From assembly GCF_030013595.1 (NCBI RefSeq), contig NZ_CP122768.1: DNA of 64,000 nucleotides; one strand, 5' to 3'. The stretch comes from Escherichia coli (GTDB taxonomy: Bacteria; Pseudomonadota; Gammaproteobacteria; Enterobacterales; Enterobacteriaceae). The notes below the pieces were generated by a model, which searched no databases, was not told the origin of the DNA, and saw only the letters and a program-made list of their open reading frames with translations. Below are positions 374 to 29,509 of the stretch, one piece after another. The stretch's first letter is position 1; each line of letters begins with the position of its first letter. Position numbers and translations under genes: made by a program.

Positions 374-399
374 GAAAAATCTCCCGCGTTACCCGTCTG

Positions 400-3001: not shown

Positions 3002-3433
3002 TTAACGGGTGCGCGGGCACACTTCGCCTTCGCCGAAGAAATAAGCGATTTCGCGAGCGGCAGATTCGACGGAATCAGAACCGTGGGTACCATTTTCGGT
3101 CAGGCTGTCAGCGTAATCAGCACGCAGAGTACCGGCCAGTGCGTTTGCCGGATTGGTCGCGCCCAGCAGATCGCGGTGACGCTGAACAGCATTTTCACCT
3201 TCCAGCACGGAAACCACGATCGGGCCAGAAGTCATGAATTCAACCAGGCCATCAAAGAACGGTTTTCCATCGTGTTCAGCATAAAAGCCACGAGCCTGTT
3301 CAACGGTCAGGTGCAGCATTTTGGTGCCGACAATTTTGAACCCTGCAGCTTCAAAGCGCGCAAAGATACTACCAATCACGTTTTTTGCTACCGCGTTCGG
3401 TTTGATGATGGAAAAAGTACGTTCAATAGCCAT
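3002..3433 (-). CDS. ndk: nucleoside diphosphate kinase
   Basis: ORF track 143 aa [15 protein letters not shown]...; canonical NDK sequence. Confidence 0.95.
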
Positions 3434-3581
3434 TTTTACCTCTGTAAATTGTTCTGTTGTTGTCTGTACCAGCGTACGAGATGGCGCGGATTATAATGAG
3501 CAACAGAGCCGTTGACTATTGATGAAGGTAACATTTTTTTAAAATAAACCTAGTTTAAGCAACAATCAGGGACAAAACAGA

Positions 3582-5894: not shown

Positions 5895-8800
5895 TTACGG
5901 TCTGACAATCAGCAAATCTTCAGCCGCGCCGGTCGCCCGCCATTGGGGAACATACATTGATTCCACCATCGGTTGCGGTACCTGATACGTTCCCGGCGTC
6001 ACCGCCCGCGCCAGATACACCAGCGTTACCGGTTGGTATTCATCAACGGCAACCGCCGCCACAAAGCGATCATCACGGAACTCAATGTGCTTAATGCTCG
6101 CCTGCTGCATCTGGTTCAGTAAGTTTTGCACTTCGCCACCACTTTGCTCCAGGCTGGCGCTACCGTTCGCCAGATTCTGGTTTTCCAGTTCCAGACCCGC
6201 AGGCAGCAGATCCACGACTAACGCATCCGGCACGCTGTTACTGGCTTTTACCTGCAACCAGACCAGCACCAGATCGCCGCTACGTAACGAGTCCAGCGAT
6301 TTACTCTTACCATCAGTACCAAGAATATGACGCTCGATTTGCAGCACATTGTTCGCCGGTAAAGGTGCGGATTGCGGATAACCGCTGGCATCCACACGCA
6401 GCCATAACGGCTGATCGCCACTGTTGGTCGCCTGCAAGGTGGCAAGTTGATCGCTATTCAGATTGCTGTTTAGCGTTTTCTCGCCTGTCAGCGGCTCAGC
6501 TGAGAAAGAGGTTTGCGCCTGCCATTTACCCGGTAAATCCTGAATCGTACGGGCAGCCAGGAACAACGCGTTGCTTTCCTGGGTCGATAGCCAGCGTTCA
6601 CCAAATGCCTGCTGCGAAAGCGTGTTCAGCAAAGTGTTCTGCTCATCGGGTAGCAGTTTATTTTCTTCCAGCAAGGAGAGCATCAACGCGTTGTCGCGCA
6701 GTGGACTACCGTAATCACCCAGCCATATCCGCTCATCACTATTACGCGGCGTTTTCAGCGCCAACGCAATTGCTTCTTCACCACGCGTCGCATCACCCAT
6801 GGTTTTCAGCGCAACGCCAAGTTGCAGCAGCGGTAAACCAGAAGCGGCATCTGCACGATGCTCCCAGATTTCACGCAGCGCACCCAGTGGAGCTTTTTGC
6901 TGACGGGCCAGCACCAGCGCAGCGTAAGACTGTACGGCGAATTTACTGGCTTTGAGATTATCCGCGTACGGGATCGACATCATGCCCGGATCTTGTAAAT
7001 AGCGCAGCAGACGCTCATTTCCCCGGTTAATGACGTCTGTCGGCACGCTGTACCCCTGCTCACCTGCGCGGACCAGGAAATCCATCACGTAAGCCGTCAG
7101 CCAGTACTCTTCGTCACCGTTTTTATCCCACAGCGCAAAGCCGCCGTTATCACGTTGCATTTGCAGCAAACGGGAAACGCCGATATCGACCGATGCACGG
7201 CGTTTCTCATCACTGTCGCCTTTGATGCCCAACGCCTGCAGTTGGGCTGCGTTGGTATAAAGTGACGGGAACAGGCCGCTGGCGGTTTGCTCAAGACACC
7301 CGTACGGATACGCTTTTAACTCTTTGATATAACGTGCGATGTTCAGCGGTGGTTTGCCGCTCAACAACAATTGCCCTTCCAGCGTAACAGGTGAGAAGTT
7401 TTGCAATCCATCCGCCGGAATCGCCCATGTCTCACCAGGCTGTAACGCCGTACCGTAATTAACCGTTTGTGCCGGGAACGCCGGACGGACGCCGATTTTC
7501 CACTGCTTATGCTGATCGGCAACGGTTTCACCCGGTAACGCTAACCCGCTAATGGTGGCCTGAATTTCTCCATCGCCATAACCCGGCAATGCTCGCACCG
7601 GGATAAACAGCGTAGTACGCACACCTGGCGCTAATTCAACGGCTGCGGGTGAAACGCTGACCAGTTCAAGCAAACCACTGGCGGTCAGGGCAACGTTCAG
7701 TTTTTGCGGTTTATCGGTAAGATTAGTGATATCCAGCGTCAGACGCGAGGTATCGCCACTCGCCATAAAGCGCGGCATGTTCAGTTCAGCAATCACAGGT
7801 GCGGCAACTATCACTTTGCTTTCGTTGCTACCGAAGTCATCTACCGTCCAGGCTTGCGCCATGACGCGCAATTCACCGTTAAAATCGCCAATCGGCAGTG
7901 TAACCGAGCCTTCGCCCTGTTCGTTGAGCGTTACCGGCAGCGCCTGCTGCGCGACAATATTGACGTGATTGACCGGCGGTTTACCACCACGTTTCAGCTC
8001 ATCACCATCGCCACCAAAACGCAGAGCTGCCAGACGCCCCTGACCTTCAATGACCTGACCGTAAATATCGTAAATGTCTGCACCATAGCGTTTCTGACCA
8101 AAGAACGCCTGCCACGGATCGGGGGTAACGTAATCAGTAATATTCAGCACACCGCTATCAACGGCAGACACCAGCACATTCACCTGTTTTGGCATCTCAC
8201 CATTTTTATTGCTGGCTTTAATTTTCACGGTTAATGGCTGATTGGGGCGCATTTTGGTGGGGGTTTCCAGCGCCAGATCGAGACGACGGTTTTCATCGCC
8301 AAGCGGCAGATGCAACACCCCAACTGCGCGTTTTGGCGTCGCAGAGCGAGATTTATCGCCAGGACGTACCACCAGCGTACTTAAATACAAATCATGACGA
8401 TTCCAGGTTTTATCGACCGGAATCGTCAGATCCAGCCCTTGAGCCGGAACATCAATCTCTTGCCACCACAGCGGCCCTTCACTGGACTCGACCATCGCAT
8501 AACCTTTACCCGCCGTTGGCGCGGCAATATGCAACTTAATGGTATCACCAGGGCGATAACTGGCTTTATCCAGTTTCAGCGTGACACGGTCGGGTCGCAC
8601 GGCACCGCTCCCGTCGCTGTTGTCCTGCCAGCTATAGCCAGCCCAGAAACGCACACTACTGACCGCTTCATTCGGCGCTTTGACTTCCAGACGATAAGCG
8701 CCCCACTCTACCGGGAAACTGACTTTACCGGTTTCATCTGCCTGAAGATCCAGAGTTTGTTCATTTTCAATCAGATCTTTTTGATCAAACTGTGACTGCC

Positions 8801-10856
8801 AGCCTTCATCTTCTGACCAGTTCCAGTAGTAATCGCGGCGTTCGCGAATCAGGCGCACCTGCAAGCCCGACACGGCTTTTTTCACGCCTTGCGCATCGCT
8901 ATAAACGATGTCAAAAGCGGCGTTACTGCCTTCATCAACAATGGGCTGTTTCACCGTGCTGTCAGTGCGATAATCGTAAACCGATTTCGAGGCGAACTGC
9001 GGACGGATCCCCGGCAATGCATCGGCAGGCCAGATAGCCTGCTCAGCGCGGCGCGTCACCGGGCGACCGCCCGATTCCAACAAACTACCCTGGAAAATAA
9101 CCTGTAATGGGGAATGCGTTTCCTTCCACTGGCTTTCTGTAGAAACTTCGCCACGCCCTTTATCATCCAGCGTCAACTGAACTTCATCCAGCGTGCGGGA
9201 AAGATTTTCGGCAGCTATATCGCCGAATTCGAAACCAGGTAAGGCTGACACAGCTTCACGCAGTGGGCGCAGGAAAAGTTGCCCTTGCAAAGTATTACCA
9301 TTAGCAGGCGCACCATACAGGTAGTACCCCACCACGGAAAATCTCACTTCATCTTTCGGCGTTAGCGGGGTTTTCTCACCAGTCAGATTCAGCGCCATGC
9401 GCTCTGGCATAAAATCTTCGACGTGGAAATCCCACATCCGGTACTGGTTATCGCCCGTGTTAGCACGAATATGCCACATACCGGTTGCCGCATTGCTATC
9501 GAGTGGCCAGGTAAAGTGGTAGAGGCCATTCTCCGGCTGACTAACGACGCTCCTGAGTACCTGCCCGTCGGGTTTAATCACGTCTAACTTGATGGGTTGA
9601 TCGGGCAATGCTTTTCCATCTGCATCACGCAATAAACCATTGAGGATGACTGTTTCACCAGGGCGATAAAGATCGCGCGGGCCAAACATGAAAAACTGTT
9701 TGCTATAGCCTGGCGCGCCAGCAATGTTAAATTCTGCTAAGTCCAGCGCCGGAAGTTTTAAATCGAGTAGCGTTGTCTGACCGTCTTTACGCGCCAGCAG
9801 TAATGCCGCGTTTTTATCATTTTCCAGCTGCACATGCCCCTGAGCATCACTGGTTGCCTGAGTCAGAGTCTGCCCTTTCTCATTTAATAAAGAGACTTCT
9901 ATTCCTTGCTGGGCCGCGCCGTTTTCCAGACTTTGGGTAAAGATATCCAGACGATTGTGATAACGGTGAGCTGAAACGCCGATATCACTTAACGTAAACA
10001 GCGTCGCGGGATTACTGTAATCGTAACGTCCAGCCTGATTCATCACAGCCAGATACACGCCTGCCTGCTGAAGCGGTTTGATATCACCCAGCGGCAGCAA
10101 TAATTTTTCACGGGTGTTACGCGCAGGATTGAGATCAAACCGTCCGGTATAAACCAGATCCGCCATCTGCAGCAGTTTTTCAGACTGCCAGTTCGCCAGC
10201 GAATTGCGGTATTCCCATTGGCTAATGAATGCAGGCAGAGATTCGGGCTTCACACGGAAGAAGTTAACATCAACATTGTTAACGTTGAGCGCCATTACCG
10301 GCAGCCCTTCAATAACTTTACCAGGTAACAACGAACCACGGCTGGCAAAACCGACGCTGGGTTGGATATCGCGGGTAGTTATAGTTTTTTCGTAATCTTT
10401 ACTGAAGGTTGCGTTGTTGAGTGCTTTGACCTCCTTGCCAATAGTGACGATCAAATCACGTTTCGGTTCGAGGTGGCGTAAACGCAACTCTTTAAGATTA
10501 TCTGACAGCTCCCAGGCACCATCCACTTTGCCGCTTTTCTTATCGACGACATGGATAACGCGTGAGAAATCCTGATCCGGGTCGAGAGGGATGGAGAATG
10601 TCAGCACCAGCGTGGCTGCGCCATCAAGTTGAACTTCAGAGAGATCCAGCAATGTCAGCGCCTTACCGGCACTCTGTTGGGCCAGTTTTTGTCGCTCCGG
10701 CGCGGAAAGTTTTGCTGAACTCACGTTTTCTGAAGAGGCCGCTTTAGTAACTTCAGAAGGCGCATCTTTTTTCACCGCTGTTGGCGCGTTATCGTTGTTG
10801 TCGCACCCTGCCAGCGCCAGCATTAGCATGCAGGCGGCTACGCGTAACTTTTTCAT
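5895..10856 (-). CDS. yfhM: alpha-2-macroglobulin family lipoprotein YfhM (ECAM)
   Basis: ORF track 1653 aa; lipoprotein signal MKKLRVAACMLMLALAGC; thioester motif CLEQ present; cotranscribed with pbpC. Confidence 0.92.
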   Translation of the reverse strand: MKKLRVAACMLMLALAGCDNNDNAPTAVKKDAPSEVTKAASSENVSSAKLSAPERQKLAQQSAGKALTLLDLSEVQLDGAATLVLTFSIPLDPDQDFSRVIHVVDKKSGKVDGAWELSDNLKELRLRHLEPKRDLIVTIGKEVKALNNATFSKDYEKTITTRDIQPSVGFASRGSLLPGKVIEGLPVMALNVNNVDVNFFRVKPESLPAFISQWEYRNSLANWQSEKLLQMADLVYTGRFDLNPARNTREKLLLPLGDIKPLQQAGVYLAVMNQAGRYDYSNPATLFTLSDIGVSAHRYHNRLDIFTQSLENGAAQQGIEVSLLNEKGQTLTQATSDAQGHVQLENDKNAALLLARKDGQTTLLDLKLPALDLAEFNIAGAPGYSKQFFMFGPRDLYRPGETVILNGLLRDADGKALPDQPIKLDVIKPDGQVLRSVVSQPENGLYHFTWPLDSNAATGMWHIRANTGDNQYRMWDFHVEDFMPERMALNLTGEKTPLTPKDEVRFSVVGYYLYGAPANGNTLQGQLFLRPLREAVSALPGFEFGDIAAENLSRTLDEVQLTLDDKGRGEVSTESQWKETHSPLQVIFQGSLLESGGRPVTRRAEQAIWPADALPGIRPQFASKSVYDYRTDSTVKQPIVDEGSNAAFDIVYSDAQGVKKAVSGLQVRLIRERRDYYWNWSEDEGWQSQFDQKDLIENEQTLDLQADETGKVSFPVEWGAYRLEVKAPNEAVSSVRFWAGYSWQDNSDGSGAVRPDRVTLKLDKASYRPGDTIKLHIAAPTAGKGYAMVESSEGPLWWQEIDVPAQGLDLTIPVDKTWNRHDLYLSTLVVRPGDKSRSATPKRAVGVLHLPLGDENRRLDLALETPTKMRPNQPLTVKIKASNKNGEMPKQVNVLVSAVDSGVLNITDYVTPDPWQAFFGQKRYGADIYDIYGQVIEGQGRLAALRFGGDGDELKRGGKPPVNHVNIVAQQALPVTLNEQGEGSVTLPIGDFNGELRVMAQAWTVDDFGSNESKVIVAAPVIAELNMPRFMASGDTSRLTLDITNLTDKPQKLNVALTASGLLELVSVSPAAVELAPGVRTTLFIPVRALPGYGDGEIQATISGLALPGETVADQHKQWKIGVRPAFPAQTVNYGTALQPGETWAIPADGLQNFSPVTLEGQLLLSGKPPLNIARYIKELKAYPYGCLEQTASGLFPSLYTNAAQLQALGIKGDSDEKRRASVDIGVSRLLQMQRDNGGFALWDKNGDEEYWLTAYVMDFLVRAGEQGYSVPTDVINRGNERLLRYLQDPGMMSIPYADNLKASKFAVQSYAALVLARQQKAPLGALREIWEHRADAASGLPLLQLGVALKTMGDATRGEEAIALALKTPRNSDERIWLGDYGSPLRDNALMLSLLEENKLLPDEQNTLLNTLSQQAFGERWLSTQESNALFLAARTIQDLPGKWQAQTSFSAEPLTGEKTLNSNLNSDQLATLQATNSGDQPLWLRVDASGYPQSAPLPANNVLQIERHILGTDGKSKSLDSLRSGDLVLVWLQVKASNSVPDALVVDLLPAGLELENQNLANGSASLEQSGGEVQNLLNQMQQASIKHIEFRDDRFVAAVAVDEYQPVTLVYLARAVTPGTYQVPQPMVESMYVPQWRATGAAEDLLIVRP

Positions 10857-11062
10857 TTTTCATCCCTGCCACAATGGCCCGTTAGCAACGTCGAATAATT
10901 ATTATGCGTGAGAATTTACGTTATGTAATTCAGTATCACGCCCATACAATCCGAATTTTAGTGAGAATTGTGGCTCAGACAGCCAAATCAGTCTCTTTTG
11001 CTTGTCGCTTTTCACTAAACATCCGACAATTTAGCCTAACCCCGGCAAAAATGGAGATGCCT

Positions 11063-11908
11063 ATGTCCACGACATGGTTTGTAGGAGCCGACTGGCTCGC
11101 CGAACATATTGATGACCCGGAAATTCAGATTATCGATGCCCGCATGGCGTCGCCTGGACAGGAAGATCGTAACGTTGCTCAGGAGTATCTGAATGGACAT
11201 ATTCCCGGCGCAGTGTTTTTTGATATCGAAGCGCTTTCTGATCACACTTCCCCGCTTCCGCACATGCTGCCGCGCCCGGAAACGTTCGCCGTGGCGATGC
11301 GTGAGTTAGGCGTTAACCAGGATAAGCACCTGATTGTCTATGACGAAGGTAATCTTTTCTCAGCCCCACGAGCATGGTGGATGCTGCGCACCTTTGGTGT
11401 AGAGAAAGTGTCGATTCTGGGGGGTGGACTTGCAGGCTGGCAGCGCGATGATCTGCTGTTAGAAGAAGGTGCAGTAGAGCTGCCGGAAGGAGAGTTTAAC
11501 GCCACGTTTAATCCTGAAGCCGTGGTGAAAGTCACCGATGTGTTATTGGCAAGCCATGAAAATACGGCGCAAATTATTGATGCCCGCCCGGCTGCACGTT
11601 TTAACGCAGAAGTTGATGAACCTCGCCCAGGTTTACGTCGCGGACATATTCCCGGCGCGTTTAACGTTCCGTGGACAGAACTGGTACGTGAAGGCGAACT
11701 AAAAACGACCGATGAACTGGATGCGATATTTTTTGGTCGCGGCGTAAGTTATGACAAACCTATTATCGTCAGTTGCGGTTCTGGTGTAACGGCAGCCGTG
11801 GTTTTGTTGGCACTCGCGACGCTGGATGTGCCAAACGTGAAACTGTACGACGGCGCATGGAGTGAATGGGGCGCACGGGCAGATTTACCGGTTGAGCCAT
11901 TGAAATAA
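11063..11908 (+). CDS. sseA: 3-mercaptopyruvate sulfurtransferase
   Basis: ORF track frame 10904..11908; start trimmed to MSTTWFVGADW (281 aa); rhodanese active-site CGSGVTA. Confidence 0.9.
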   Translation: MSTTWFVGADWLAEHIDDPEIQIIDARMASPGQEDRNVAQEYLNGHIPGAVFFDIEALSDHTSPLPHMLPRPETFAVAMRELGVNQDKHLIVYDEGNLFSAPRAWWMLRTFGVEKVSILGGGLAGWQRDDLLLEEGAVELPEGEFNATFNPEAVVKVTDVLLASHENTAQIIDARPAARFNAEVDEPRPGLRRGHIPGAFNVPWTELVREGELKTTDELDAIFFGRGVSYDKPIIVSCGSGVTAAVVLLALATLDVPNVKLYDGAWSEWGARADLPVEPLK

Positions 11909-11924
11909 GCTTTTTACAGGCAAT

Positions 11925-11953
11925 AAAAAACCGCCGAATTTGGCGGTTTTTTA
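11925..11953 (+). terminator. rho-independent terminator downstream of sseA
   Basis: Hairpin ccgccgaa/ttTggcgg followed by T-tract (aaaaaaccgccgaatttggcggttttttatt). Confidence 0.7.
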
Positions 11954-12099
11954 TTGCTGGTCTGGTTCGCGGCCTTTCCAGCAGGTTGACTTGTGTTGTC
12001 GGAGCAACGCAGGTGCTTCACAGCAAAGCAATACTCGCCAGTAACTCTCTTTTTGTCAAGCGAAAGAGAGTAATCATTGTTTATTTAGCGTATTATCGA

Positions 12100-12405
12100 C
12101 ACCGGCCCTTTCCGCCGTCTCGCAAACGGGCGCTGGCTTAAGGAAAGGATGTTCCATGGCCGTAAATGCAGGTGTTTCACAGCGCTTGCTATCGCGGCAA
12201 TATCGCCAGTGGTGCTGTCGTGATGCGGTCTTCGCATGGACCGCACAATGAAGATACGGTGCTTTTGTATCGTACTTATTGTTTCTGGTGCGCTGTTAAG
12301 CGAGGTAAATAATAACCGGAGTCTCTCCGGTAACAATTTACTGGTGGTTAACAAACTTCAGAGCAGCAAGTAAGCCCGAATGCCGCCCTTTGGGGCGGCA
12401 TATTT
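12100..12405 (+). ncRNA. ryfA: ryfA-type small RNA / timP mRNA, copy 1 (5' end not determined)
   Basis: Location between sseA and sseB where RyfA maps in E. coli; ends at hairpin gccgccc-tttg-gggcggc plus atatttt; contains small hydrophobic ORF. Confidence 0.45.
12236..12373 (+). CDS. timP: small hydrophobic protein, TimP-like type I toxin candidate (MDRTMKIRCFCIVLIVSGALLSEVNNNRSLSGNNLLVVNKLQSSK; may start at second Met)
   Basis: Own translation; ORF below the 60-aa track cutoff; hydrophobic TM-like core IRCFCIVLIVSGALL; position inside ryfA. Confidence 0.5.
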   Translation: MDRTMKIRCFCIVLIVSGALLSEVNNNRSLSGNNLLVVNKLQSSK

Positions 12406-12488
12406 TAGATTATCCGATGCTGTTTAAAGTCACGCAAAAAACCACCCCAGCGACGTTCATAGAATGGCGCAATATGTTCGGTAATAAA
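12395..12488 (-). pseudogene. duplicated 3'-terminal fragment of sseB (~30 codons) carried in repeat unit A
   Basis: Sequence ttagattatccgatgctgtttaaagtcacgcaaaaaaccaccccagcgacgttcatagaatggcgcaatatgttcggtaataaa is identical to the 3' end of sseB at 13083-13166. Confidence 0.8.
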
Positions 12489-12779
12489 ATAACCTAGCTT
12501 ATTAGTCCGAATTCAGACAAATATAAACAATTTTCGCTTAATATTAAAAATACTAACCAATAAAAGATATTACTTGAACATGTAATTTCACTTTCTTTAA
12601 ACAACAAAAAACCGCCAAAATCAGGCGGTTATTTGTTGCTGGTCTGGTTCGCGGCCTTTCCAGCAGATTGTATTACCGTAGTAATGCAAGCGCGTCTCAG
12701 CGGACACAATACTCGCCAGTAACTCTCTTTTTGTCAAGTAAAAGAGAGTTATTATTGTTCTGTTAGTGTATTATCCACT

Positions 12780-13085
12780 GCGGACCTTTCCGCCGTCTCG
12801 CAAGCGGGCGCTGGCTTAAGGAAAGGATGTTCCGCGACCGTTAGAGCAAGCGCGTCTCAGCGCTTGCTATCGCGGCAATATCGCCAGTGGTGCTGTCGTG
12901 ATGCGGTCTTCGCATGGACCGCACAATGAAGATACGGTGCTTTTGTATCGTACTTATTGTTTCTGGTGCGCTGTTAAGCGAGGTAAATAATAACCGGAGT
13001 CTCTCCGGTAACAATTTACTGGTGGTTAACAAACTTCAGAGCAGCAAGTAAGCCCGAATGCCGCCCTTTGGGGCGGCATATTTTA
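12780..13085 (+). ncRNA. ryfA: ryfA-type small RNA / timP mRNA, copy 2 (5' end not determined)
   Basis: Duplicate of copy 1; terminator hairpin 13060-13077 and T-tract overlap the sseB stop codon. Confidence 0.45.
12914..13051 (+). CDS. timP: small hydrophobic protein, TimP-like type I toxin candidate, copy 2 (identical 45-aa translation)
   Basis: Own translation of atggaccgcacaatgaagatacggtgcttttgtatcgta...agcagcaagtaa. Confidence 0.5.
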   Translation: MDRTMKIRCFCIVLIVSGALLSEVNNNRSLSGNNLLVVNKLQSSK

Positions 13086-13859
13086 GATTATCCGATGCTG
13101 TTTAAAGTCACGCAAAAAACCACCCCAGCGACGTTCATAGAATGGCGCAATATGTTCGGTAATAAAGTGGCTAATTCCTTTTTCCCCTTTTTTCACCTGA
13201 CAAATATCGATGGGTTCATCGCCAGGTAATGTATCGGTCGCTACACTTCCTGCCGCCTGAATAATTTCTTCGATATCACCATCGGCTTCAATGCCAATAA
13301 GTAAATTAGGCTGTGCCTCTTCGTTCTCTTTAATTGAACAAATAAAAGCACGCTTCACCGGCTTAATAGTTTTAAATAAGGTGGTGAGTGAATCAATCAT
13401 TTGTGCTGGTGGCTCTGCAACTTCCGATAATATCAGCGATTCACCGCCTTCCAGTACTTCCTGGCTGCTCAGCGGATTTCCTTCTTCACCAATCAGCAAA
13501 CTGATTTCACGCGGCATAAATTCTTTACCGGTTGGCAGTTTGGCATTAAGGAAGAGCGTTTCGCCAAGGGTCATCTCAAACAATGTGCGAACGGGCATTA
13601 CGACAAATGCCTGTTCGTCTTCAACCGCCTGTTGAAGTGCTTCTAACGAGGTGAAAAAAGGAATGACGCTGGTGCCGTCTTCTTTTTCCCAGTGCTGTAA
13701 ATCAAGCGCGCTATCTTCAACCACAGCCTCGCCCTTCGCCGCCGTACCAGGCACCCAGACGGTGGATTCCAGTAGCGTACGGAAAAAGGCCGGGCGGTGC
13801 GCCGGTTCGGTTGCTGCTTTTTCCAGCAGATCTTCAAGTTCGTTTTTTGTTTCGGACAT
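13083..13859 (-). CDS. sseB: SseB family protein (enhances serine sensitivity)
   Basis: ORF track 13083..13868; start trimmed to MSETKNELEDLL (258 aa). Confidence 0.9.
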   Translation of the reverse strand: MSETKNELEDLLEKAATEPAHRPAFFRTLLESTVWVPGTAAKGEAVVEDSALDLQHWEKEDGTSVIPFFTSLEALQQAVEDEQAFVVMPVRTLFEMTLGETLFLNAKLPTGKEFMPREISLLIGEEGNPLSSQEVLEGGESLILSEVAEPPAQMIDSLTTLFKTIKPVKRAFICSIKENEEAQPNLLIGIEADGDIEEIIQAAGSVATDTLPGDEPIDICQVKKGEKGISHFITEHIAPFYERRWGGFLRDFKQHRII

Positions 13860-13977
13860 AAGAACCACAATTCATTCAACGTTCGGGGCACAAGTGCCTG
13901 ATGCGCTACGCTTATCAGGCCTACAAGGGAATCTCAATCTATTGGATTTTCGCAATTTTGTAGGCCAAATAAGACGT

Positions 13978-15261
13978 TTACGCCGTTAACAGATTAGCAA
14001 TCGTGCGCACACCTAGCCCGGTCGCGCCCGCAGACCACTGTTCAACCGGCGATTTACGGTAAGTCGCCGAGCAGTCGATATGCAGCCAGCCTTGCTGATA
14101 GTTCTCAACAAAGTGCGACAGGAAGCCCGCCGCCGTGCTCGCGCCTGCCGGATACGCCGCGCTTCCGGTATTGTTCAGTTCCGCAAAGTTAGACGGCAGC
14201 TGGCTGCGGTGGAACTCCGCCAGCGGCAGACGCCAGAACGGTTCATTCTCCTGCGCGGCACTCGCCAGCAAGCGACCGGCAAGCGCATCGTCAAAACTGA
14301 ACAGCGCGTGATAATCATTACCCAGCGCAGTTTTCGCCGCCCCGGTGAGGGTCGCCGCATCAATGATCAGTTCCGGTTTCTGCGCACTGGCATCAATCAG
14401 GCCATCGGCCAGCACCAAACGCCCTTCGGCATCAGTGTTCATCACTTCAACTTTTTTACCGTTGCGATAGGTAATAATATCGCCCAGTTTGAACGCGTTG
14501 CCGCTGATCAGGTTATCCGCACAGCAGAGGAACAGCTTCACGCGCTTGTTCAGTCCGCGCGTAATGGCAAATGCCAGCGCCCCGGTAACCGTTGCCGCGC
14601 CGCCCATGTCCGACTTCATCGAGTCCATAAACGCAGTCTGTTTGATGCTGTAGCCGCCGGAGTCAAAAGTGATACCTTTACCTACCAGGCACGCGTACAC
14701 TGGCGCTTCTTTATCGCCTGTTGGGTTGTAATCCAGCGCCAGCAATACCGGGGAACGTTCTGAACCGCGCCCGACCGTGTGCAGCCCCATATAACCTTGA
14801 TCACGCAGATCTTCACCTTTGGTGATCCGATAAGTCACACGATCGCCCGCGACGTTGCTGATCAGATCAACAGCACGCTGTGCCAGTTGCGATGGTCCCA
14901 ATTCTTCTGCCGGTGCGTTGATGGTGTCACGCACCCAGTCGATGATCATCAGGCGGTTATCCAGTTCCTGCCGCTGGGCATCGTCCAGATCCGGCCACTC
15001 CACTTTACGCGTGCCTTTCGGGGCTTTGTAACCTTGCCAGAATGTCCAGCAGCGATCCGCATCCCAGCCTTCACCGCTTAACTGAACATGTTTGATGCCC
15101 AGACCGTCAATCTTGCGCGCCGCACGCTGGATCAGCCCCAGATCGTCTGCCCCGTTCAAATGCAGGGTAATGCCATCATTATTAATGCTGTAAGTCGCTT
15201 TTTCTCCCCAGCGCGCGTCGGCAGGTTGGGTAGAGAGGGTAATTTTCATCGCTTCTGTCAT
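13978..15261 (-). CDS. pepB: aminopeptidase B (M17 peptidase)
   Basis: ORF track 427 aa; M17 motif NTDAEGRL. Confidence 0.93.
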
Positions 15262-15319
15262 TTTAGTTATCCTTATTCGTTTAACAGCAAAACGGGCTAC
15301 CCCCAGGCAGCCCGTTCAT

Positions 15320-15520
15320 TTATTCGGCTTCGTCCAGCCAGACTAACAAAATCGCTTCGAGGATTTTCTCGTTGGATGCCTGCGGGTCGTCGTCGAAATC
15401 TTCCAGATCGCAAATCCACTGATGCATATCGGTGAATCGAACCGTTTTCGGATCAAGATCGGGATACGCATCGTACAGTGCTTCGCCAATTTCGCGGCTA
15501 TCGGTCCACTTAAGTCCCAT
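15320..15520 (-). CDS. iscX: Fe-S cluster assembly protein IscX
   Basis: ORF track 66 aa [17 protein letters not shown]... Confidence 0.93.
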
Positions 15521-15531
15521 ACTAACCTCTG

Positions 15532-15867
15532 TTAATGCTCACGCGCATGGTTGATAGTGTAACGCGGGATTTCGACCACTAAATCTTCGTCGGTAACGCG
15601 CGCCTGACAGCTTAAACGGCTTTCCGGCTCCAGTCCCCAGGCTTTGTCCAGCATGTCGTCTTCCTGCTCTGAGCTTTCCGGCAGCGAGTCAAAACCTTCG
15701 CGAACGATGCAGTGGCAGGTGGTGCAAGCACAGGATTTTTCACAGGCGTGTTCAATCTCGATACCGTTACGCAGCGCAACGTCGAGAATGGTTTCACCGC
15801 TATTAGCTTCCAGAACAGCGCCATCAGGACAGAGATCCTGATGAGGCAAAATAACAATCTTTGGCAT
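15532..15867 (-). CDS. fdx: [2Fe-2S] ferredoxin of the isc operon
   Basis: ORF track 111 aa [21 protein letters not shown]... Confidence 0.93.
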
Positions 15868-15868
15868 A

Positions 15869-17719
15869 TTAAACCTCGTCCACGGAATGGCCTTTCAGCG
15901 CACGACGAACCGACTGGTCCATGCGGCGAGCGGCGAAATCCTGGGTTTGTTTGTCTACGTTTTTAATCGCTTGTTCGATGGCGTCAACATCATCGCCCTG
16001 CGCCACTTCACTCAGGTGAGCGGCAGCATCGTCGATATCCTGACGTTCTGCGGCGCTTAACAGCGCGGCATCAGCAGCCAGCGCGCCGTGCAGACTTTCC
16101 AGCACACGCGCCGCTTCTACTTTTTGTTCTGCCAGCATACGGGCTTTTACGTCCTGCTCGGCATAGCTCATTGAGTCTTTGATCATCGAAGCGATTTCGC
16201 TATCGGTCAGACCGTAAGACGGTTTGACCTGAATAGACGCCTCAACGCCGGTGGATTTCTCCATCGCCGTCACGCTCAAAAGACCGTCGGCATCGACCTG
16301 GAACGTTACGCGAATATGCGCGCCGCCAGCCGGTAGCGCCGGGATACCACGCAGTGCAAAACGCGCCAGCGAGCGGCAGTCCTGCACCAGTTCACGTTCA
16401 CCCTGCATCACATGGATAGACATTGCCGTCTGACCATCTTTAAAGGTGGTGAAATCCTGGGCGCGGGCCACCGGAATCGTGGTATTACGCGGGATCACTT
16501 TCTCCACCAGGCCGCCCATGGTCTCGAGGCCCAGCGACAGCGGGATCACATCCAGCAACAGCATTTCGCTGTCCGGCTTGTTACCCACCAGAATATCCGC
16601 CTGAATCGCCGCGCCAATAGCGACGACTTTATCCGGGTCGATAGAAGTCAGCGGTGGACGACCGAAAAATTCGCCCACCCGTTCACGCACCAGCGGCACG
16701 CGGGTAGAACCGCCAACCATCACCACTTCCAGCACTTCATCAGCTTCTACACCCGCGTCTTTCAGCGCGCGACGACAAGCCAGTAAGGTTCGTTTTACCA
16801 GTGGCGCGATCAGTTCATTGAATTGTTCACGGCTGATTTCGCCCTGCCAGCCCGCAACGTTAACGGTCACGGAGTCCGCATCGCTCAGCGCGATTTTGGC
16901 TGCAATGGCGGCATCCAGCAGTTCACGCTGAACGCGGTTATCGCTACGATCAGGAATGCCCGCCTGCTCGCGAATATAATCCGCCAGCAGATGGTCGAAA
17001 TCATCGCCGCCGAGCGCGGAATCACCGCCGGTCGCCAGCACTTCAAACACGCCGCGACTTAAGCGCAGAATGGAAATATCAAACGTCCCGCCGCCGAGGT
17101 CATAAACAGCGATCACGCCTTCCTGACCGGAATCCAGCCCGTAGGCGATAGCCGCAGCGGTCGGTTCGTTAAGTAAGCGCAGAACATGCAACCCCGCCAG
17201 ACGCGCCGCGTCTTTGGTGCCCTGACGCTGGGCATCGTCAAAGTACGCCGGAACGGTGATAACGACACCATCCAGCTCGCCTGCCAGGGCTTCAGTTGCC
17301 CGCGCCGCCAGTGCTTTGAGGATGTCCGCAGAAACGCGCACCGGGTTCAGCAGCCCCGCCGCCGTTTCAATCATCGGCAGGCCGTTTTCGCTGGCCTGGA
17401 ATTGATAAGGCAGATGCGGATAGCGTTGCTGGATATCAGCCAGCGAGCGCCCCATCAGGCGTTTAACAGAACTAATGGTGTTGGCGGTATCGAGCGCGGC
17501 GTTAGTACGCGCGTCATAACCCACCGAATGCCCTTGCTGTTGATAGTGAACAACAGACGGCAGCAGGTGACGGCCTTCATGGTCGGCTAACGTTTCGGCC
17601 TGACCGCTGCGCACTGTCGCCACCAGCGAGTTGGTTGTGCCCAGGTCGATACCGGCCGCCAAACGACGCTGATGCGGCGCAGCACTCAAACCAGGTTCAC
17701 TAATTTGTAATAAGGCCAT
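15869..17719 (-). CDS. hscA: Fe-S cluster chaperone HscA (Hsp70 family)
   Basis: ORF track 15869..17773; start trimmed to [10 protein letters not shown] (616 aa); Hsp70 motif IDLGTTNS. Confidence 0.92.
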
Positions 17720-17735
17720 GTTTAGCTTCCAGAAA

Positions 17736-18251
17736 TTAAAAATCGAGCAGTTTTTCTTCGAGTTGTTCGGCACTGCTTCGCAGTTTATCGAGAAAACGCA
17801 GCTTACGCACGGTATCCGCCGCCGCGTCCCACGTCTCGTTGTCTAACTGTTCAACCATCAACTGATGGCGGGTATCAAACATCTTTTTCACACGTTTGAT
17901 AAAGCTTTCCAGCCGCGCTTCATCTTTCGCTTGTTCGATCTCGTCCAGTTCTTCGCGCAGCTCCAGCTGTTCCATCAGGAACGCGGTATCGCGCACAGTA
18001 TGCTGCTCGCTGGCGAGATCAAAACCGTGCAAAGAAAGCAAATATTCCGCGCGCATTAACGGATGACGCAGCGTTTGCCAGGCCTGGTTAATGGTTGCAG
18101 ATTGCTGTACGGCGGCGAGTTGTTCCGCCTGGCTTCCGCTGGCGAATTTATCAGGATGATACTGACGTTGTAGATCCTGAAAACGCAGGCTCAGCGCCTG
18201 GGTATCGAGTTGATAACGGGCAGGCAAGCCAAAGAGGGTGAAGTAATCCAT
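17736..18251 (-). CDS. hscB: Fe-S cluster co-chaperone HscB (J-domain)
   Basis: ORF track 171 aa [16 protein letters not shown]...HPD motif. Confidence 0.93.
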
Positions 18252-18346
18252 AACATTCTCAGGGCTGCGATCCGCCGCGATAACGGCGAATCAGGTAAAA
18301 CAAACCCCACGCGCAGGCGACCACGGTGGGGTTATCGGTATGCGCA

Positions 18347-18670
18347 TCAAACGTGGAAGCTTTCGCCGCAACCACACTCATCTTTGACGTTCGGGTTGGT
18401 GAATTTAAACCCTTCGTTCAGGCCTTCTTTTACGAAGTCCAGCTGCGTACCGTCCAGAAATTGCAGGCTTTTGCCATCGACCACGACTTTCACGCCTTTG
18501 TCTTCAAACACGATGTCTTCCGGCGTCGGTTCGTCAACAAATTCCAGTACATAAGCCATACCTGAACATCCGGAGGTTCTCACGCCCAGACGCAGGCCAA
18601 ACCCTTTGCCGCGGTTAGCCAGAAAGGTATTTACTCGCGCTGCTGCACTGTCGCTCAGTGTAATCGACAT
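18347..18670 (-). CDS. iscA: Fe-S cluster insertion protein IscA
   Basis: ORF track frame; start trimmed to MSITLSD (107 aa); C-terminal CGCGESF. Confidence 0.92.
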
Positions 18671-18686
18671 AACCAAACCTCAACTC

Positions 18687-19073
18687 TTATTTTGCTTCAC
18701 GTTTGCTTTTATAGTCCGCAATGGCGGCTTTGATCGCGTCTTCTGCCAGAATAGAACAGTGAATTTTCACCGGCGGCAGTTCAAGTTCTTCAGCAATATC
18801 GGTGTTTTTGATCGCCTGCGCTTCGTCGAGAGACTTCCCTTTCACCCATTCGGTGACCAGGGAGCTGGAAGCGATAGCAGAACCGCAGCCGTAAGTTTTA
18901 AAACGCGCGTCTTCAATGATACCTTCATCGTTGACTTTAATCTGCAACTTCATTACGTCGCCACAGGCCGGTGCACCCACCATGCCGCTGCCGACGTTCT
19001 CGTCGTTGTTGTCAAAGGAACCCACGTTACGCGGATTCTCGTAATGGTCGATAACTTTTTCGCTGTAAGCCAT
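18687..19073 (-). CDS. iscU: Fe-S cluster scaffold IscU
   Basis: ORF track 128 aa MAYSEKVIDHYENPRNVG...LPPVKIHCS. Confidence 0.95.
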   Translation of the reverse strand: MAYSEKVIDHYENPRNVGSFDNNDENVGSGMVGAPACGDVMKLQIKVNDEGIIEDARFKTYGCGSAIASSSLVTEWVKGKSLDEAQAIKNTDIAEELELPPVKIHCSILAEDAIKAAIADYKSKREAK

Positions 19074-19100
19074 TATAAATTCTCCTGATTCCGATACCGA

Positions 19101-20315
19101 TTAATGATGTGCCCATTCGATGCTGTTCAGATCCACGCCCTGCTTGTACATTTCCCACAGCGGAGAAAGGTCACGCAGACGACCGATGGATTTACGAACT
19201 AACTCGATGGTGTAGTCGATCTCTTCTTCAGTAGTAAAACGACCTAAAGAGAAACGGATAGAGCTATGTGCCAGCTCGTCGTTCAGCCCCTGCGCGCGCA
19301 GCACGTAGGACGGTTCGAGGCTTGCTGACGTACAGGCGGAACCTGAAGAAACCGCGAGGTCTTTCAGCGCCATAATCAGCGACTCACCTTCAACGTAGTT
19401 GAAGCTGACGTTGAGAATGTTCGGCGCACCGTGTTCCAGGTCACCGTTCAGGTAAACTTCTTCGATATCTTTGATGCCGTTCCACAGACGGTTACGCAGG
19501 CCGCGCAGACGTTCCATCTCGGTCGCCATCTCTTCTTTTGCGATGCGATAGGCTTCGCCCATACCAACGATCTGGTGAACAGGCAGAGTGCCGGAACGCA
19601 TACCGCGCTCGTGACCGCCGCCGTGCATTTGCGCTTCGATGCGTACGCGCGGTTTACGACGCACATACAGCGCACCGATACCTTTCGGGCCATAGATTTT
19701 GTGACCGGAGAATGACATCAGGTCAACTTTCAACTGGCTCAGGTCGATAGGCAGTTTGCCCACGCTCTGGGTTGCATCAACGTGATAGATAATGCCGCGA
19801 GCACGGCACATTTCGCCGATAGCCGCGATATCCTGCACCACGCCGATTTCGTTATTCACGTGCATGATAGAAACGAGGATGGTGTCGTCACGCATCGCTG
19901 CTTCAAGTTCTTTCAGGTCGATAATGCCATTACGCTGCGGTGCCAGGTAGGTGACTTCGAAACCTTCGCGCTCCAGCTGACGGCAGGTATCCAGTACCGC
20001 TTTGTGTTCGGTTTTACTGGTGATGATGTGCTTGCCTTTTTTCTGATAAAAGTTGGCTGCACCTTTGATCGCCAGGTTGTCAGATTCGGTTGCACCAGAG
20101 GTAAAGACGATTTCACGCGGGTCAGCGCCGACCAGATCGGCAATCTGATTACGGGCGATATCTACCGCTTCTTCAGCCTGCCAGCCGAAACGGTGAGAGC
20201 GGGAGGCCGGGTTACCAAAGGTTCCGTCCATCGTCATAAACTGCATCATTTTCTCGGCAACACGCGGGTCCACCGGCGTGGTTGCGGAGTAGTCGAGATA
20301 AATCGGTAATTTCAT
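19101..20315 (-). CDS. iscS: cysteine desulfurase IscS
   Basis: ORF track 19101..20339; start trimmed to [14 protein letters not shown] (404 aa); PLP motif SFSGHK. Confidence 0.93.
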
Positions 20316-20426
20316 TGCTCTATAAACTCCGTACATCACTCAATGCAAGGAACCAGGCTACCGGCTGGATGTACGACCGTGTTTACGGAGCGCGATACGC
20401 CCCGGCCTGATTCTGAATTCTTTTTA

Positions 20427-20915
20427 TTAAGCGCGTAACTTAACGTCGATCGCGTCTTGTGTGCGGGTGCGCGGCGCGTCGTGAGTATGCTGACGACCAG
20501 ACACATCCAGCACTTCCTGGTTATTAACCAGTTCGCCTAAAGTAATGTTGTTGAGAAAACCGGTGAGACGGTCGCTCAAATCACGCCACAGCGCGTGGGT
20601 CAGGCATTTATCGCCGCCCTGGCAGCCGCCTTTACCCTGACAACGGGTGGCATCTACAGATTCGTCAACGGCGCTAATCACTTCGCCAACGGCGATGCTG
20701 CTGGCATCTTTGCCTAACAGATAACCACCGCCTGGTCCACGTACGCTGGAAACCAGACCATTTTTACGCAGACGGGAAAACAGTTGTTCCAGATAAGAAA
20801 GGGAAATTCCCTGACGTTCGGAAATATCAGCCAACGGTACCGGGCCCGCTTCAGAGTTGAGCGCAACGTCAAGCATTGCGGTCACGGCATAGCGCCCTTT
20901 AGATGTCAGTCTCAT
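20427..20915 (-). CDS. iscR: Fe-S-containing transcriptional regulator IscR (Rrf2 family)
   Basis: ORF track 162 aa [19 protein letters not shown]... Confidence 0.95.
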
Positions 20916-20989
20916 GTCTTACTTCACCTCAAACTCGCCCCTGCCCGGGGTTTTTTATTGTAAAAGTGGGGGTATTGCATAGCAGGGTC

Positions 20990-21050
20990 AAGTCTGACAT
21001 TCCCGAGTAAATTGGTCAACTATTTACTTGACTGATTTAGTCGGGTATTT
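20990..21050 (-). promoter_or_regulatory. iscRSUA promoter region with candidate IscR type-1 boxes
   Basis: Reverse strand reads atacccgactaaatcagtcaagtaaatagttgaccaatttactcgggaatgtcagacttgacc, matching my recollection of the IscR-box pattern (ATAsyyGACTRwwwYAGTCrrsTAT) and a TTGACC -35-like hexamer. Confidence 0.55.
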
Positions 21051-21184
21051 AACCTTCAGTGCCATTTTTTTATCGTGGCGTTTGTACCTGTTGTCGGATG
21101 CGGTGTGAACACCTTATCCGACCTACGGTTCTGTACATTGTAGGCCTGATAAGACGCATTAAGCGTCGCATCAGGCAACCACTG

Positions 21185-21925
21185 TTATTCGGCCTTATTA
21201 CCTTTATTCTGCTGCTCTATAGAAGCCAGAATCCCGCGCAGGATATTCAATTCCTGGCTTTCCGGGCGCGCACGGGTAAACAGACGGCGCAATTTATTCA
21301 TCACCTGCCCCGGATGGTTTTCACGAATAAAACCGGTTGCCAGCAGCGTTTGTTCCAGATGACCATAAAAACGCTCCAGATCATCGACCAGCGGATACGG
21401 CGTCTCTTCATGCTCGACTTGTTCGCCATTTTCCTGAGTTGCCAGCCAGGCCATGCGCACTTCATAGGCAATAACCTGAACCGCCATCGCCAGGTTCAGC
21501 GAACTGTATTCCGGGTTCGCAGCAATCGCGACATGATAATGGCATTTCTGCAACTCTTCATTGGTCAAGCCAACACGCTCACGACCAAAAACCAGCGCCA
21601 CCGGGGTATTTGCCGCTTCAGCGACGCTTTTCAGACCGCATTCGCGCGGGTCGAGCATCGGCCACGGCAGCGTGCGGGAGCGTGCGCTGGTGCCCACCAC
21701 CAGGCTACAACCGGCTAACGCTTCGTCGAGCGTATCGACGATGTGAGCATTACCAATCACATCGCTGGCCCCTGCTGCCAGGGCAATCGCCTGGGAGTCA
21801 GGTTTCACCAGTGGATTAACCAGCCACAGATTGGTTAATCCCATTGTTTTCATGGCACGGGCAACAGAACCCATATTGCCGGTGTGTGACGTCTCCACCA
21901 GCACAATTCGAATATTTTGCAGCAT
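21185..21925 (-). CDS. trmJ: tRNA (Cm32/Um32) 2'-O-methyltransferase TrmJ
   Basis: ORF track 246 aa; SpoU-type MTase; synteny next to iscR. Confidence 0.92.
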
Positions 21926-22043
21926 TGTCTTTCTTCGTCTAAAGATTATTCGCGCATCTTATCATAAAACGAAGACAGATGCCGATCTCGCTGCTATACT
22001 CTGCGCCGTTTTCCCGTTCTTTAACATCCAGTGAGAGAGACCG

Positions 22044-27597: not shown

Positions 27598-29509
<1,912 letters not shown>

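Follow-up and report, generated by a model that had tools for sequence, protein, structure and literature searches.

Within a 64,000-nucleotide window of an Escherichia coli genome (GCF_030013595.1, contig NZ_CP122768.1), the region between sseA and sseB, which is also the context of ryfA in K-12, contains a tandem repeat. The two units, 11921-12488 and 12602-13166, are 91% identical over 570 aligned columns, and each carries a ryfA RNA with a small ORF in its 3' part and a divergent TimR-like sRNA gene (Table 1). The first-pass annotation had described two identical 45-codon ORFs on the plus strand, at 12236-12373 and 12914-13051, and these were confirmed, both translating to MDRTMKIRCFCIVLIVSGALLSEVNNNRSLSGNNLLVVNKLQSSK followed by the stop codon. 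As it had also pointed out, they are missing from the ORF track; both were listed once the minimum length was lowered to 20 aa, and their absence is therefore an effect of the length threshold only.

Table 1. Features of the two units between sseA and sseB (positions in the 64,000-nt window).
Feature	Position	Strand	Remarks
Bidirectional intrinsic terminator of sseA (+) and TimR-1 (-)	11920-11957	.	19+19 nt inverted repeat, 95% complementary
TimR-1 (RyfB-like sRNA, ~100 nt)	11925-12024 (about)	-	putative partner of timP-1, TGTTT class; 95% to K-12 timR b4811
Divergent promoter region, unit 1	12031-12096	.	read from sequence
Putative TimR-1 promoter	-10 GAGTAT 12031-12036 (ATACTC on +); -35 TTGACA 12054-12059 (TGTCAA on +)	-	
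Putative timP-1 -10 TATTAT	12091-12096	+	
ryfA-1/timP-1 mRNA	12102-12406	+	RF00126 311.1 bits, full length 1-296; TGTTT class, 'ryfA2-type' of Fris et al.
Candidate pseudoknot sites, timP-1	CGCUGGC 12131-12137; GCCAGUG 12205-12211	+	
SL2 of timP-1	12168-12189	+	variable TGTTT at 12173-12177
SL4 of timP-1	12225-12244	+	GCGGUCUUCGCAUGGACCGC
timP-1 CDS	12248-12373	+	41 aa; NF040796 toxic_TimP 80.4 bits, profile 1-40/40
timP-1 terminator	12380-12401	+	
Duplicated 3' end of sseB (pseudogene fragment)	12403-12488	-	carried with unit 1; identical to 13081-13166
AT-rich unrepeated filler between units, 113 nt	12489-12601	.	outside self-match; core of Rfam 'IS128' match
TimR-2 (RyfB-like sRNA, ~95 nt)	12607-12702 (about)	-	putative partner of timP-2, CGCGT class; 5' end by alignment to TimR-1
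TimR-2 terminator	12630-12610	-	
Divergent promoter region, unit 2	12709-12774	.	read from sequence
Putative TimR-2 promoter	-10 12709-12714; -35 TTGACA 12732-12737	-	
Putative timP-2 -10 TATTAT	12769-12774	+	
ryfA-2/timP-2 mRNA	12780-13084	+	RF00126 310.4 bits, full length; CGCGT class, 'ryfA1-like' of Fris et al.
Candidate pseudoknot sites, timP-2	12809-12815 and 12883-12889	+	
Variable CGCGT in SL2 of timP-2	12851-12855	+	
SL4 of timP-2	12903-12922	+	
timP-2 CDS	12926-13051	+	41 aa; same protein as timP-1
timP-2 terminator	13058-13079	+	

The proposed similarity to TimP was borne out, and assignment of the ORF product to this family is supported by the family model NF040796 (toxic_TimP), against which the two ORF products scored 80.0 and 80.4 bits for a curated cutoff of 45. 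A homologue search, which through its word index reached Escherichia and Shigella only, returned 60 proteins from these two genera, nearly all named TimP. The timP-2 protein matches the TimP of copy 2 in strain HCP5S3_I2 exactly. The 45-aa reading from the first ATG, also used for strain CFT073 (PMC8205139), is probably four residues too long. The alignment to the family model spans residues 5-44 of the 45-aa ORF, and timP as annotated in RefSeq/PGAP and in K-12 (b4812) is 126 nt long and encodes 41 aa, the same length as timP-1. Because both the model and the existing annotation begin there, the likely start of timP is the second ATG, 12 nt downstream of the first. Shine-Dalgarno strength was dropped as a guide to this choice, pairing to the anti-Shine-Dalgarno sequence being weak and uninformative at both codons (-2.4 versus -3.0 kcal/mol). 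Read from the second ATG, TimP begins with MKIR followed by CFCIVLIVSGALL and has a hydrophobic segment at residues ~3-17, where the 11-residue Kyte-Doolittle mean rises to 2.9. It should be noted that a real 41-aa gene was recovered here from the raw sequence after a length-thresholded ORF track had missed it.

The ORF track instead shows antisense ORFs of 63 and 89 aa, and the earlier view that they are spurious is reasonable: they differ in length between the two copies, are unannotated in the near-identical strain HCP5S3_I2 and match no NCBIfam model significantly (the 89-aa ORF gave no hit, the 63-aa ORF one at chance level, E = 0.14 and 11 bits against a cutoff of 280). Similarly, nothing significant was found in NCBIfam for a 30-codon out-of-frame ORF.

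Both ryfA transcripts match Rfam family RF00126, whose gathering score is 80, and all helices of the family are retained in the two copies with the exception of one short 3-bp helix. The predicted folds are stable, with minimum free energies of -125.9 kcal/mol (z = -6.2) for the timP-1 mRNA and -134.1 kcal/mol (z = -6.9) for the timP-2 mRNA, and the SL2 and SL4 hairpins are present in the minimum free energy and centroid folds of both. The CGCUGGC and GCCAGUG elements are predicted to pair over 7 bp and probably match, with an offset of 1-2 nt, the positions G33/C34 and G102/C103 of the Salmonella leader (PMC13000454).

For the divergent antitoxin sRNA promoter, which the first-pass annotation had suggested looking for upstream of each copy, both units offer a promoter-like TTGACA-17-GAGTAT motif, accompanied by an intrinsic terminator and by a 5' seed of 16-17 nt. 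A palindrome is present in the divergent promoter region of both units. These motifs were picked out by visual inspection with the K-12 transcript ends as a guide, and their promoter function may be deduced from those ends. A strict sigma-70 consensus scan called no TimR or timP promoter; those of unit 1 were missed because one hexamer matches only 3 of 6 positions. Transcript ends were placed by alignment, and K-12 timR (b4811) ends at the position equivalent to the terminator shared by sseA and TimR-1. The TimR-1 RNA folds with a 3' terminator hairpin and U-run (z = -3.2). A sub-threshold Rfam match to AgrB overlaps TimR-1; this and the other sub-threshold matches over terminator regions (rimP leader, RNAI, Leu/Phe leaders) were treated as chance hits driven by the terminators.

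Complementarity links each TimR to the leader of its own unit. In unit 1, the TimR-1 5' end, which is the reverse complement of 12009-12024, can form a 16-bp duplex with the 5' arm of SL2 in timP-1, one of the pairs being G-U. In unit 2, positions 12686-12702 are an exact direct repeat of 12846-12862, and the minus-strand TimR-2 is therefore fully complementary to SL2 of timP-2, over 17 of 17 nt. The predicted duplex of TimR-1 reaches -41.8 kcal/mol with its own leader compared to -30.0 with the other, and that of TimR-2 -45.2 compared to -33.8, so that cognate duplexes are predicted to be more stable by 11-12 kcal/mol. The variable region of SL2 is TGTTT in copy 1 and CGCGT in copy 2, TimR covaries with it, and three such classes were found across five genomes. 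From these matching differences, each antitoxin should preferentially control its own toxin mRNA.

The description 'duplicated type I toxin-antitoxin locus' thus fits, both units having TimP, a ryfA RNA and a divergent TimR. Very probably, the sseA-sseB region holds a tandem pair of type I toxin-antitoxin modules of the timPR (ryfA/ryfB) kind, both complete, each predicted to prefer its cognate partner, and with 3' parts that have undergone gene conversion. Homology, RNA family membership, module anatomy, complementarity with covariation, and distribution in the population were established directly from sequence. Transcription, repression by TimR, translation and membrane toxicity would be carried over from the work in Salmonella and Shigella dysenteriae. 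Each module would then produce, by divergent transcription, a timP mRNA of ~305 nt and a TimR sRNA of ~100 nt. The mRNA would comprise a structured 146-nt leader (SL1-SL4), the 41-codon ORF and an intrinsic terminator, and its product would be a small, signal-peptide-like hydrophobic protein of the inner membrane. By homology with Salmonella, the Shine-Dalgarno sequence would be locked in SL4, translation of timP would depend on an SL1-SL3 pseudoknot, and binding of the TimR 5' end to the SL2 loop would hold the mRNA untranslatable. TimR-1 and TimR-2 would each favour their own timP mRNA through the TGTTT and CGCGT forms of SL2 and the matching changes in TimR.

The closest characterised system is timPR of Salmonella Typhimurium (Andresen et al. 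2020; Eleftheraki & Holmqvist 2024; Eleftheraki et al. 2026), which belongs to the same RF00126 and NF040796 families. Translation and toxicity of TimP have been established in Salmonella only, where its inner-membrane localisation and repression by TimR are documented as well, and TimR-like sRNAs are conserved across enterobacteria (PMC7667032). The E. coli modules share with it a divergent sRNA that does not overlap timP and is complementary at its 5' end to SL2 in the leader, an SL4 over the Shine-Dalgarno sequence and complementary pseudoknot sites in SL1 and SL3 (PMC11228461, PMC13000454), as well as an N-terminal signal-like hydrophobic segment. By contrast, the Salmonella locus consists of one module, encodes a TimP of 38 aa and has STM2534 as an additional gene separating sseA from timP, whereas the present locus has two tandem modules and encodes a TimP of 41 aa that differs in its C-terminal half.

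The tandem arrangement itself is already known, annotated and published, and the finding is correct but ordinary: the twins ryfA1/ryfA2 and ryfB1/ryfB2 were described for S. dysenteriae in 2017 (Fris et al., PMC5333039), RefSeq names two timP genes at this site in HCP5S3_I2, a strain nearly identical to the window, and timP, ryfA and timR have this same setting in the K-12 and PGAP annotations. As in S. dysenteriae, where the tandem ryfA genes are about 95% identical, the two copies differ mainly around a 5-nt variable region (TGTTT versus GC-rich), CGCGT being one of the four types listed by Fris et al. (PMC5333039), and a divergent sRNA of ~100 nt lies upstream of each copy, its complementarity overlapping the variable region. 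The two loci differ in that the present one belongs to an E. coli of commensal type, closely related to an isolate from a pig, and has a perfectly identical 3' stretch of 309 nt. In S. dysenteriae, RyfA1 and RyfA2 are both expressed, RyfB1 and RyfB2 were seen by RNA-seq, and RyfB1 reduces RyfA1 and leaves RyfA2 unaffected (PMC5333039).

E. coli has other type I toxin-antitoxin systems in several copies (ldrABCD/rdl, ibs/sib, zorO-orzO), likewise composed of a small hydrophobic toxin and an antisense or divergent sRNA antitoxin. Sib/Ibs and Zor/Orz are paralogous modules, arranged in tandem or dispersed, in which the antitoxin picks its own toxin mRNA by a few variable nucleotides. Their sequences, and those of ldr, are unrelated to timPR, and unlike their antitoxins TimR is trans-encoded beside its target gene with no overlap. 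Moreover, timP is activated by a structural switch and not by mRNA processing (PMC11228461, PMC13000454). The zorO-orzO pair has been offered as an analogy for the ryfA siblings (PMC5333039).

A different function has been attributed to these RNAs. Fris et al. (PMC5333039) read them as non-coding, and the ryfA genes of E. coli and Shigella could mainly or additionally specify base-pairing 'sibling sRNAs', RyfA1 and RyfA2, that act on stress resistance, fimbriae, ompC and virulence, with an untranslated or irrelevant ORF and with TimR/RyfB regulating one sRNA by another. The ryfA phenotypes of E. coli and Shigella are indeed reported as peptide-independent (PMC8205139, PMC13188913, PMC5333039): in uropathogenic CFT073, every phenotype was restored by ryfA alleles whose ORF had been destroyed (PMC8205139); in S. 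dysenteriae, no protein was obtained from a ryfA1 leader-gfp fusion, and overproduction of RyfA1 abolished the ompC transcript without slowing growth (PMC5333039); in avian pathogenic E. coli, loss of ryfA has phenotypes and deletion of timR has little effect (PMC13188913). RyfA is also reported to be bound by ProQ (PMC10664665). No detection of the TimP peptide has been reported in E. coli or Shigella, and the weak Shine-Dalgarno pairing and the confinement of all differences between the copies to the leader, with none in the ORF, are compatible with this view. The 30-aa ORF tested in S. dysenteriae (PMC5333039) appears, however, to lie in a different frame of the present sequence. Several points speak against an irrelevant ORF: it is undisrupted in the two copies and in almost every E. 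coli genome, its product fits a curated protein family model, the hydrophobic N-terminal part is kept across enterobacteria (PMC7667032), and the leader retains the translation-control elements of Salmonella, namely SL4 over the Shine-Dalgarno sequence and the pseudoknot sites. Toxin and sRNA roles are not mutually exclusive, and we regard the riboregulatory reading as rather unlikely.

Identity between the two units is unevenly distributed. They are 100% identical over 12180-12488/12858-13166 (309 nt) and only about 81% identical in the ~260 nt upstream; the ryfA transcripts are 95.4% identical, with all 14 differences among 305 positions in the first 78 nt (12102-12179). A simple recent duplication was ruled out by this divergence of the 5' parts and by other strains in which the order of the two classes is reversed. 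Comparison with HCP5S3_I2 narrows down the event: one flank has 0 differences in 11.9 kb (100% identity) and the other 6 scattered ones in 19.3 kb (99.97%), the spacer and the remainder of the locus match throughout, and copy 1 has 10 differences within 144 nt, every one corresponding to the copy-2 base. The twin ryfA genes had suggested S. dysenteriae as the origin of the window, an idea discarded in view of these E. coli flanks, in a genome collection that contained no Shigella. The perfect identity of the ORFs is either a local gene-conversion-like homogenisation or an assembly artefact. In the latter case, reads of one copy would have corrected the other during assembly or polishing, and the true genome would resemble HCP5S3_I2, with two TimP variants 4 residues apart. 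Short-read polishing can homogenise an exact repeat of 309 nt spaced 678 nt apart, and the clustering of the changes in one stretch of copy 1 is as an artefact would leave it; true gene conversion gives the same pattern, however, and the tract stops inside the repeat, with the diverged 5' parts correctly kept separate and the remainder of the locus matching the sister strain exactly. An artefact seems unlikely, and we favour a recent intra-locus gene conversion as the reason why the two units agree perfectly in their toxin ORFs and in all sequence downstream of SL2. As judged from these comparisons, the locus is a pair of modules with diverged antitoxin/target specificity and recently homogenised 3' parts, and no fresh exact copy.

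The array varies among strains. About 3% of complete E. coli genomes have 2-3 ryfA copies (estimated roughly from 176 additional ryfA matches), and the inter-unit spacer, part of a 212-bit match to RF00125 (IS128) at 12438-12648, was found in 2240 of 5426 complete genomes, many genomes being devoid of it altogether. The annotations of HCP5S3_I2, 19KM1831 and IR53017 list the sseB fragment as a pseudogene for an incomplete SseB. K-12 has the same genes (ryfA, timP b4812 and timR b4811) in the same sseA-sseB context, in a decayed 1.5-unit version: the TimR of unit 1 and the timP of unit 2 align at ~95% to its timR and timP, and it lacks the equivalent of 12119-12474, a 356-nt deletion that removed timP-1 and therefore placed the annotated timR 400 nt from ryfA. 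That one of the present units is likewise a decaying, non-functional remnant heading to a K-12-like state is quite improbable, for despite the loss of one timP from most E. coli genomes, the deletion of copy 1 in K-12 and the frequent loss of the spacer, both units are complete here (promoter motifs, TimR with terminator, equal full-length ryfA score, intact ORF with terminator) and transcripts of the two RyfA siblings are known from S. dysenteriae (PMC5333039).

A broader and more tentative reading, which we consider possible but short of probable, is that the sseA-sseB spacer is a recombining array of 1-3 timPR modules with at least three orthogonal TimR/SL2 classes (TGTTT, CGCGT and CACCC), in which conversion would homogenise the toxin ORF and stop at the specificity determinant, while shuffling and deletion would leave orphan or mismatched antitoxins. 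Mismatches of this kind were found in unit 3 of 19KM1831 and in K-12, which has a distal cognate TimR and, adjoining ryfA, a TimR-like gene of the CGCGT class that does not match that ryfA. If selection maintains the array, it would offer a natural case of antitoxin-target co-diversification insulating paralogous type I modules; if this reading is true, the K-12 reference annotation lacks a second TimR-like sRNA gene. The discovery value of the locus is small, since the family, the antitoxin, the mechanism and the tandem arrangement are all in the literature, and RefSeq already names these genes in a strain that is nearly identical. The three-class TimR-SL2 covariation and the conversion tract ending at the specificity region may nevertheless be of interest for the evolution of type I systems and for work on ryfA in pathogenic E. 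coli. In strains with two or three modules, a single ryfA or timR deletion would leave the other copies in place. Finally, the 1.5-unit structure of K-12 accounts for the existence of an 'IS128' family in Rfam and for the 400 nt that separate timR from ryfA.

Judged from its sequence, the region between sseA and sseB is a tandem timPR (ryfA/ryfB) type I toxin-antitoxin array, already known and already annotated. The first-pass annotation, which had proposed a duplicated type I toxin-antitoxin locus, was essentially right, each timP (the toxin gene inside the ryfA mRNA) having its own divergent gene resembling that of the antitoxin sRNA TimR (RyfB). The two repeat units (11921-12488 and 12602-13166) are 91% identical over 570 columns, and the neighbouring genes yfhM, sseA, sseB and pepB form the ryfA context of K-12, where ryfA (b4440), timP (b4812, 126 nt) and timR (b4811) are annotated. 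Identity between the ryfA copies is 95.4%, and the 14 mismatches among 305 positions all fall within the first 78 nt. The 5-nt variable region of stem-loop 2 (SL2) of the timP leader, which defines the class of a unit, reads TGTTT in copy 1 (12173-12177) versus CGCGT in copy 2 (12851-12855).

Features of the two timPR units (gathering score of RF00126, 80)
Feature	Position	Strand	Description
TimR-1	11925-12024	-	upstream of timP-1; 95% alignment to K-12 timR
ryfA-1	12102-12406		Rfam RF00126 full-length match, 311.1 bits
timP-1 CDS as annotated	12248-12373	+	41 aa
inter-unit filler	12489-12601		113 nt, AT-rich; separates the repeat units
TimR-2	about 12607-12702	-	upstream of timP-2; TimR/RyfB-like
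ryfA-2	12780-13084		Rfam RF00126 full-length match, 310.4 bits
timP-2 CDS as annotated	12926-13051	+	41 aa

This arrangement is the same as that of Shigella dysenteriae, in which ryfA1 and ryfA2 lie in tandem (95% identical) with variable regions of the TGTTT, CGCGT, CCCCC or CACCC type and divergent RyfB1 and RyfB2 of about 100 nt, RyfB1 lowering RyfA1 but not RyfA2 (PMC5333039). In Salmonella, ryfA is the mRNA for the toxic inner-membrane protein TimP and is repressed by TimR, and timP is flanked by TimR-like sRNAs with leader-complementary 5' ends in all enterobacteria examined there (Andresen et al., PMC7667032). The Shine-Dalgarno sequence is trapped in SL4, initiation requires an SL1-SL3 pseudoknot, and TimR binding to SL2 breaks this pseudoknot, favouring the inactive fold (PMC11228461, PMC13000454). 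The leaders described here likewise form SL2 and SL4 in both the MFE and centroid folds (z = -6.2 and -6.9) and carry mutually complementary 7-mers, CGCUGGC and GCCAGUG, whose positions would be those of the Salmonella pseudoknot sites.

The twin ORFs reported initially were confirmed, since translation of 12236-12373 and of 12914-13051 gives the same product, MDRTMKIRCFCIVLIVSGALLSEVNNNRSLSGNNLLVVNKLQSSK followed by a stop codon, an identity far beyond chance. They are indeed missing from the ORF track, but only through its size threshold, as mechanical ORF calling at a minimum of 20 aa lists both. Their description as TimP-like also stands: the 40-position TimP family profile matches residues 5-44, the ORFs lie inside ryfA, and nearly all of 60 Escherichia/Shigella homologues, mostly of 41 aa, are named TimP. 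The profile alignment, the length of K-12 timP and that of the homologues led to the 41-aa coding regions of the table; the frame proposed earlier was thus correct, with the probable start codon lying 12 nt further downstream. The 45-aa reading from the upstream ATG was used for CFT073 by Bessaiah et al. (PMC8205139). Both ATGs pair weakly with the anti-Shine-Dalgarno sequence, so that sequence alone does not decide the start. However, because SL4, which holds the Shine-Dalgarno sequence in the Salmonella model, here (12225-12244) contains the upstream ATG itself, the downstream one would be favoured. We agree that the antisense 89- and 63-aa ORFs are spurious, as an NCBIfam search gave nothing significant and they are unannotated in the sister strain E. 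coli HCP5S3_I2.

The divergent antitoxin promoter anticipated for each copy was found in both units as a promoter-like TTGACA-17-GAGTAT element, back-to-back with the timP -10 TATTAT, with an intrinsic terminator at the end of each TimR. Each TimR 5' end is complementary to the SL2 5' arm and loop of its own timP leader, over 17 of 17 nt in unit 2 (12686-12702 = 12846-12862) and over 16 bp including one G-U in unit 1 (12009-12024 vs 12168-12183). Predicted duplex energies are -41.8 and -45.2 kcal/mol for the cognate pairs and -30.0 and -33.8 kcal/mol for the crossed ones. A palindrome of 28-36 nt (ACTCTCTTT...AAAGAGAGT) lies between the TimR and timP promoters (12044-12071 and 12718-12753), with the TimR -35 TTGACA in its loop in each unit; this palindrome might bind a regulator or form a hairpin. 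TimR-1 also gives a sub-threshold Rfam match to AgrB (11922-12003, minus strand; 32.7 bits where the gathering score is 40, E = 0.004), for which the terminator hairpin is probably responsible. AgrB serves as antitoxin sRNA in another type I system, dinQ-agrB.

HCP5S3_I2 (pig faeces, UK) is 100% identical to the window over 1-11900 and 99.97% identical over 13109-32395 (6 scattered mismatches), and its RefSeq annotation has two timP genes with a partial sseB between them. At the locus exactly 10 differences were found, all in copy 1 (12300-12443), and all 10 turn copy 1 into the copy-2 base. They change four residues of TimP-1: in HCP5S3_I2, TimP-1 ends ...LLTEV...VVNNLQNSR and TimP-2 ...LLSEV...VVNKLQSSK. 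Since every clustered difference makes copy 1 equal to copy 2, the perfect ORF identity would reflect either gene conversion within the locus, very recent and at least 144 nt long, or, alternatively, homogenisation of the copies during polishing or assembly. The stretch identical between the copies spans 309 nt, with its boundary just 3' of the SL2 loop.

TimP translation and toxicity have been shown in Salmonella only (PMC7667032). Because the E. coli and Shigella evidence opposes them or is absent, ryfA in Escherichia may have two roles or act mainly as a riboregulator. In S. dysenteriae, gfp fused to the ryfA1 leader was silent, and overproducing RyfA1 did not inhibit growth (PMC5333039); in CFT073, ryfA phenotypes were complemented by alleles with a disrupted ORF (PMC8205139); and in APEC, timR loss had minimal effect (PMC13188913). 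The silent fusion may nevertheless not bear on TimP: Fris et al. (2017) gave 30 aa as the size of the ORF they tested (PMC5333039), and the sole 30-codon ORF in ryfA here, at 12898-12990 on the plus strand (12166-12312 in copy 1), is in a frame different from timP, so that, judging by length only, their negative result may have missed TimP.

A single ryfA query hit 5425 of the 5426 complete E. coli genomes, at 5601 places in total and at no more than three in any one genome. The 176 extra places suggest more than one copy in roughly 3% of genomes, an estimate only, as partial matches may make up some of them. Three timP genes are annotated in 19KM1831 and two in IR53017. K-12 carries 1.5 units (1340-2160 of its locus = window 11908-13084): it has lost timP-1 and most of the sseB fragment through a 356-nt deletion (window 12119-12474), and TimR-1, the filler and unit 2 are kept. 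The deletion explains why the annotated timR (b4811), which is the unit-1 TimR, lies 400 nt from ryfA. An unannotated CGCGT-class TimR-like gene lies directly upstream of ryfA, a mismatched pair as the K-12 SL2 belongs to the TGTTT class.

When ten units and the remnant of K-12 unit 1, taken from five genomes, were aligned, three TimR/SL2 classes emerged (TGTTT, CGCGT and CACCC), with changes matched on both partners. 19KM1831 has three tandem units (1600-3500 of its locus), including a CACCC class in which TimR seed and SL2 covary. In K-12 unit 2 and in 19KM1831 unit 3, where a CACCC-class timP sits beside a CGCGT-class TimR, the neighbouring TimR is non-cognate and the cognate one lies elsewhere in the array. 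These alignments indicate old modules that have diverged and that recombination has reshuffled. A fresh duplication was rejected, given that the 5' ~260 nt of the two units are only about 81% identical and that the class order in IR53017 is opposite to that of the window. The residual interest is modest and lies in the specificity classes, predicted to be orthogonal, in a putative conversion tract that stops at the specificity determinant, and in K-12, where the array has decayed and a second TimR-like gene is unannotated.

It should also be noted that an Rfam 'IS128 RNA' match (RF00125, 212 bits; 12438-12648, plus strand) coincides with the junction of the two units, spanning the tail of the duplicated sseB 3' fragment, the filler (its core) and the TimR-2 terminator. 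As this core occurs in 2240 of 5426 complete E. coli genomes, its patchy distribution reflects array structure. Further downstream, similarity to HCP5S3_I2 ends at 32395, near yphA/yphB of that strain; the different content beyond, including an IS10 RNA-OUT match (56956-57025, minus strand) adjoining a 402-aa ORF (57018-58226), suggests that 32396-64000 represents an island, acquired by insertion or replacement. The isc operon region carries an expected housekeeping feature, the iscR stability element (RF01517, 132 bits; 20317-20426, minus strand).
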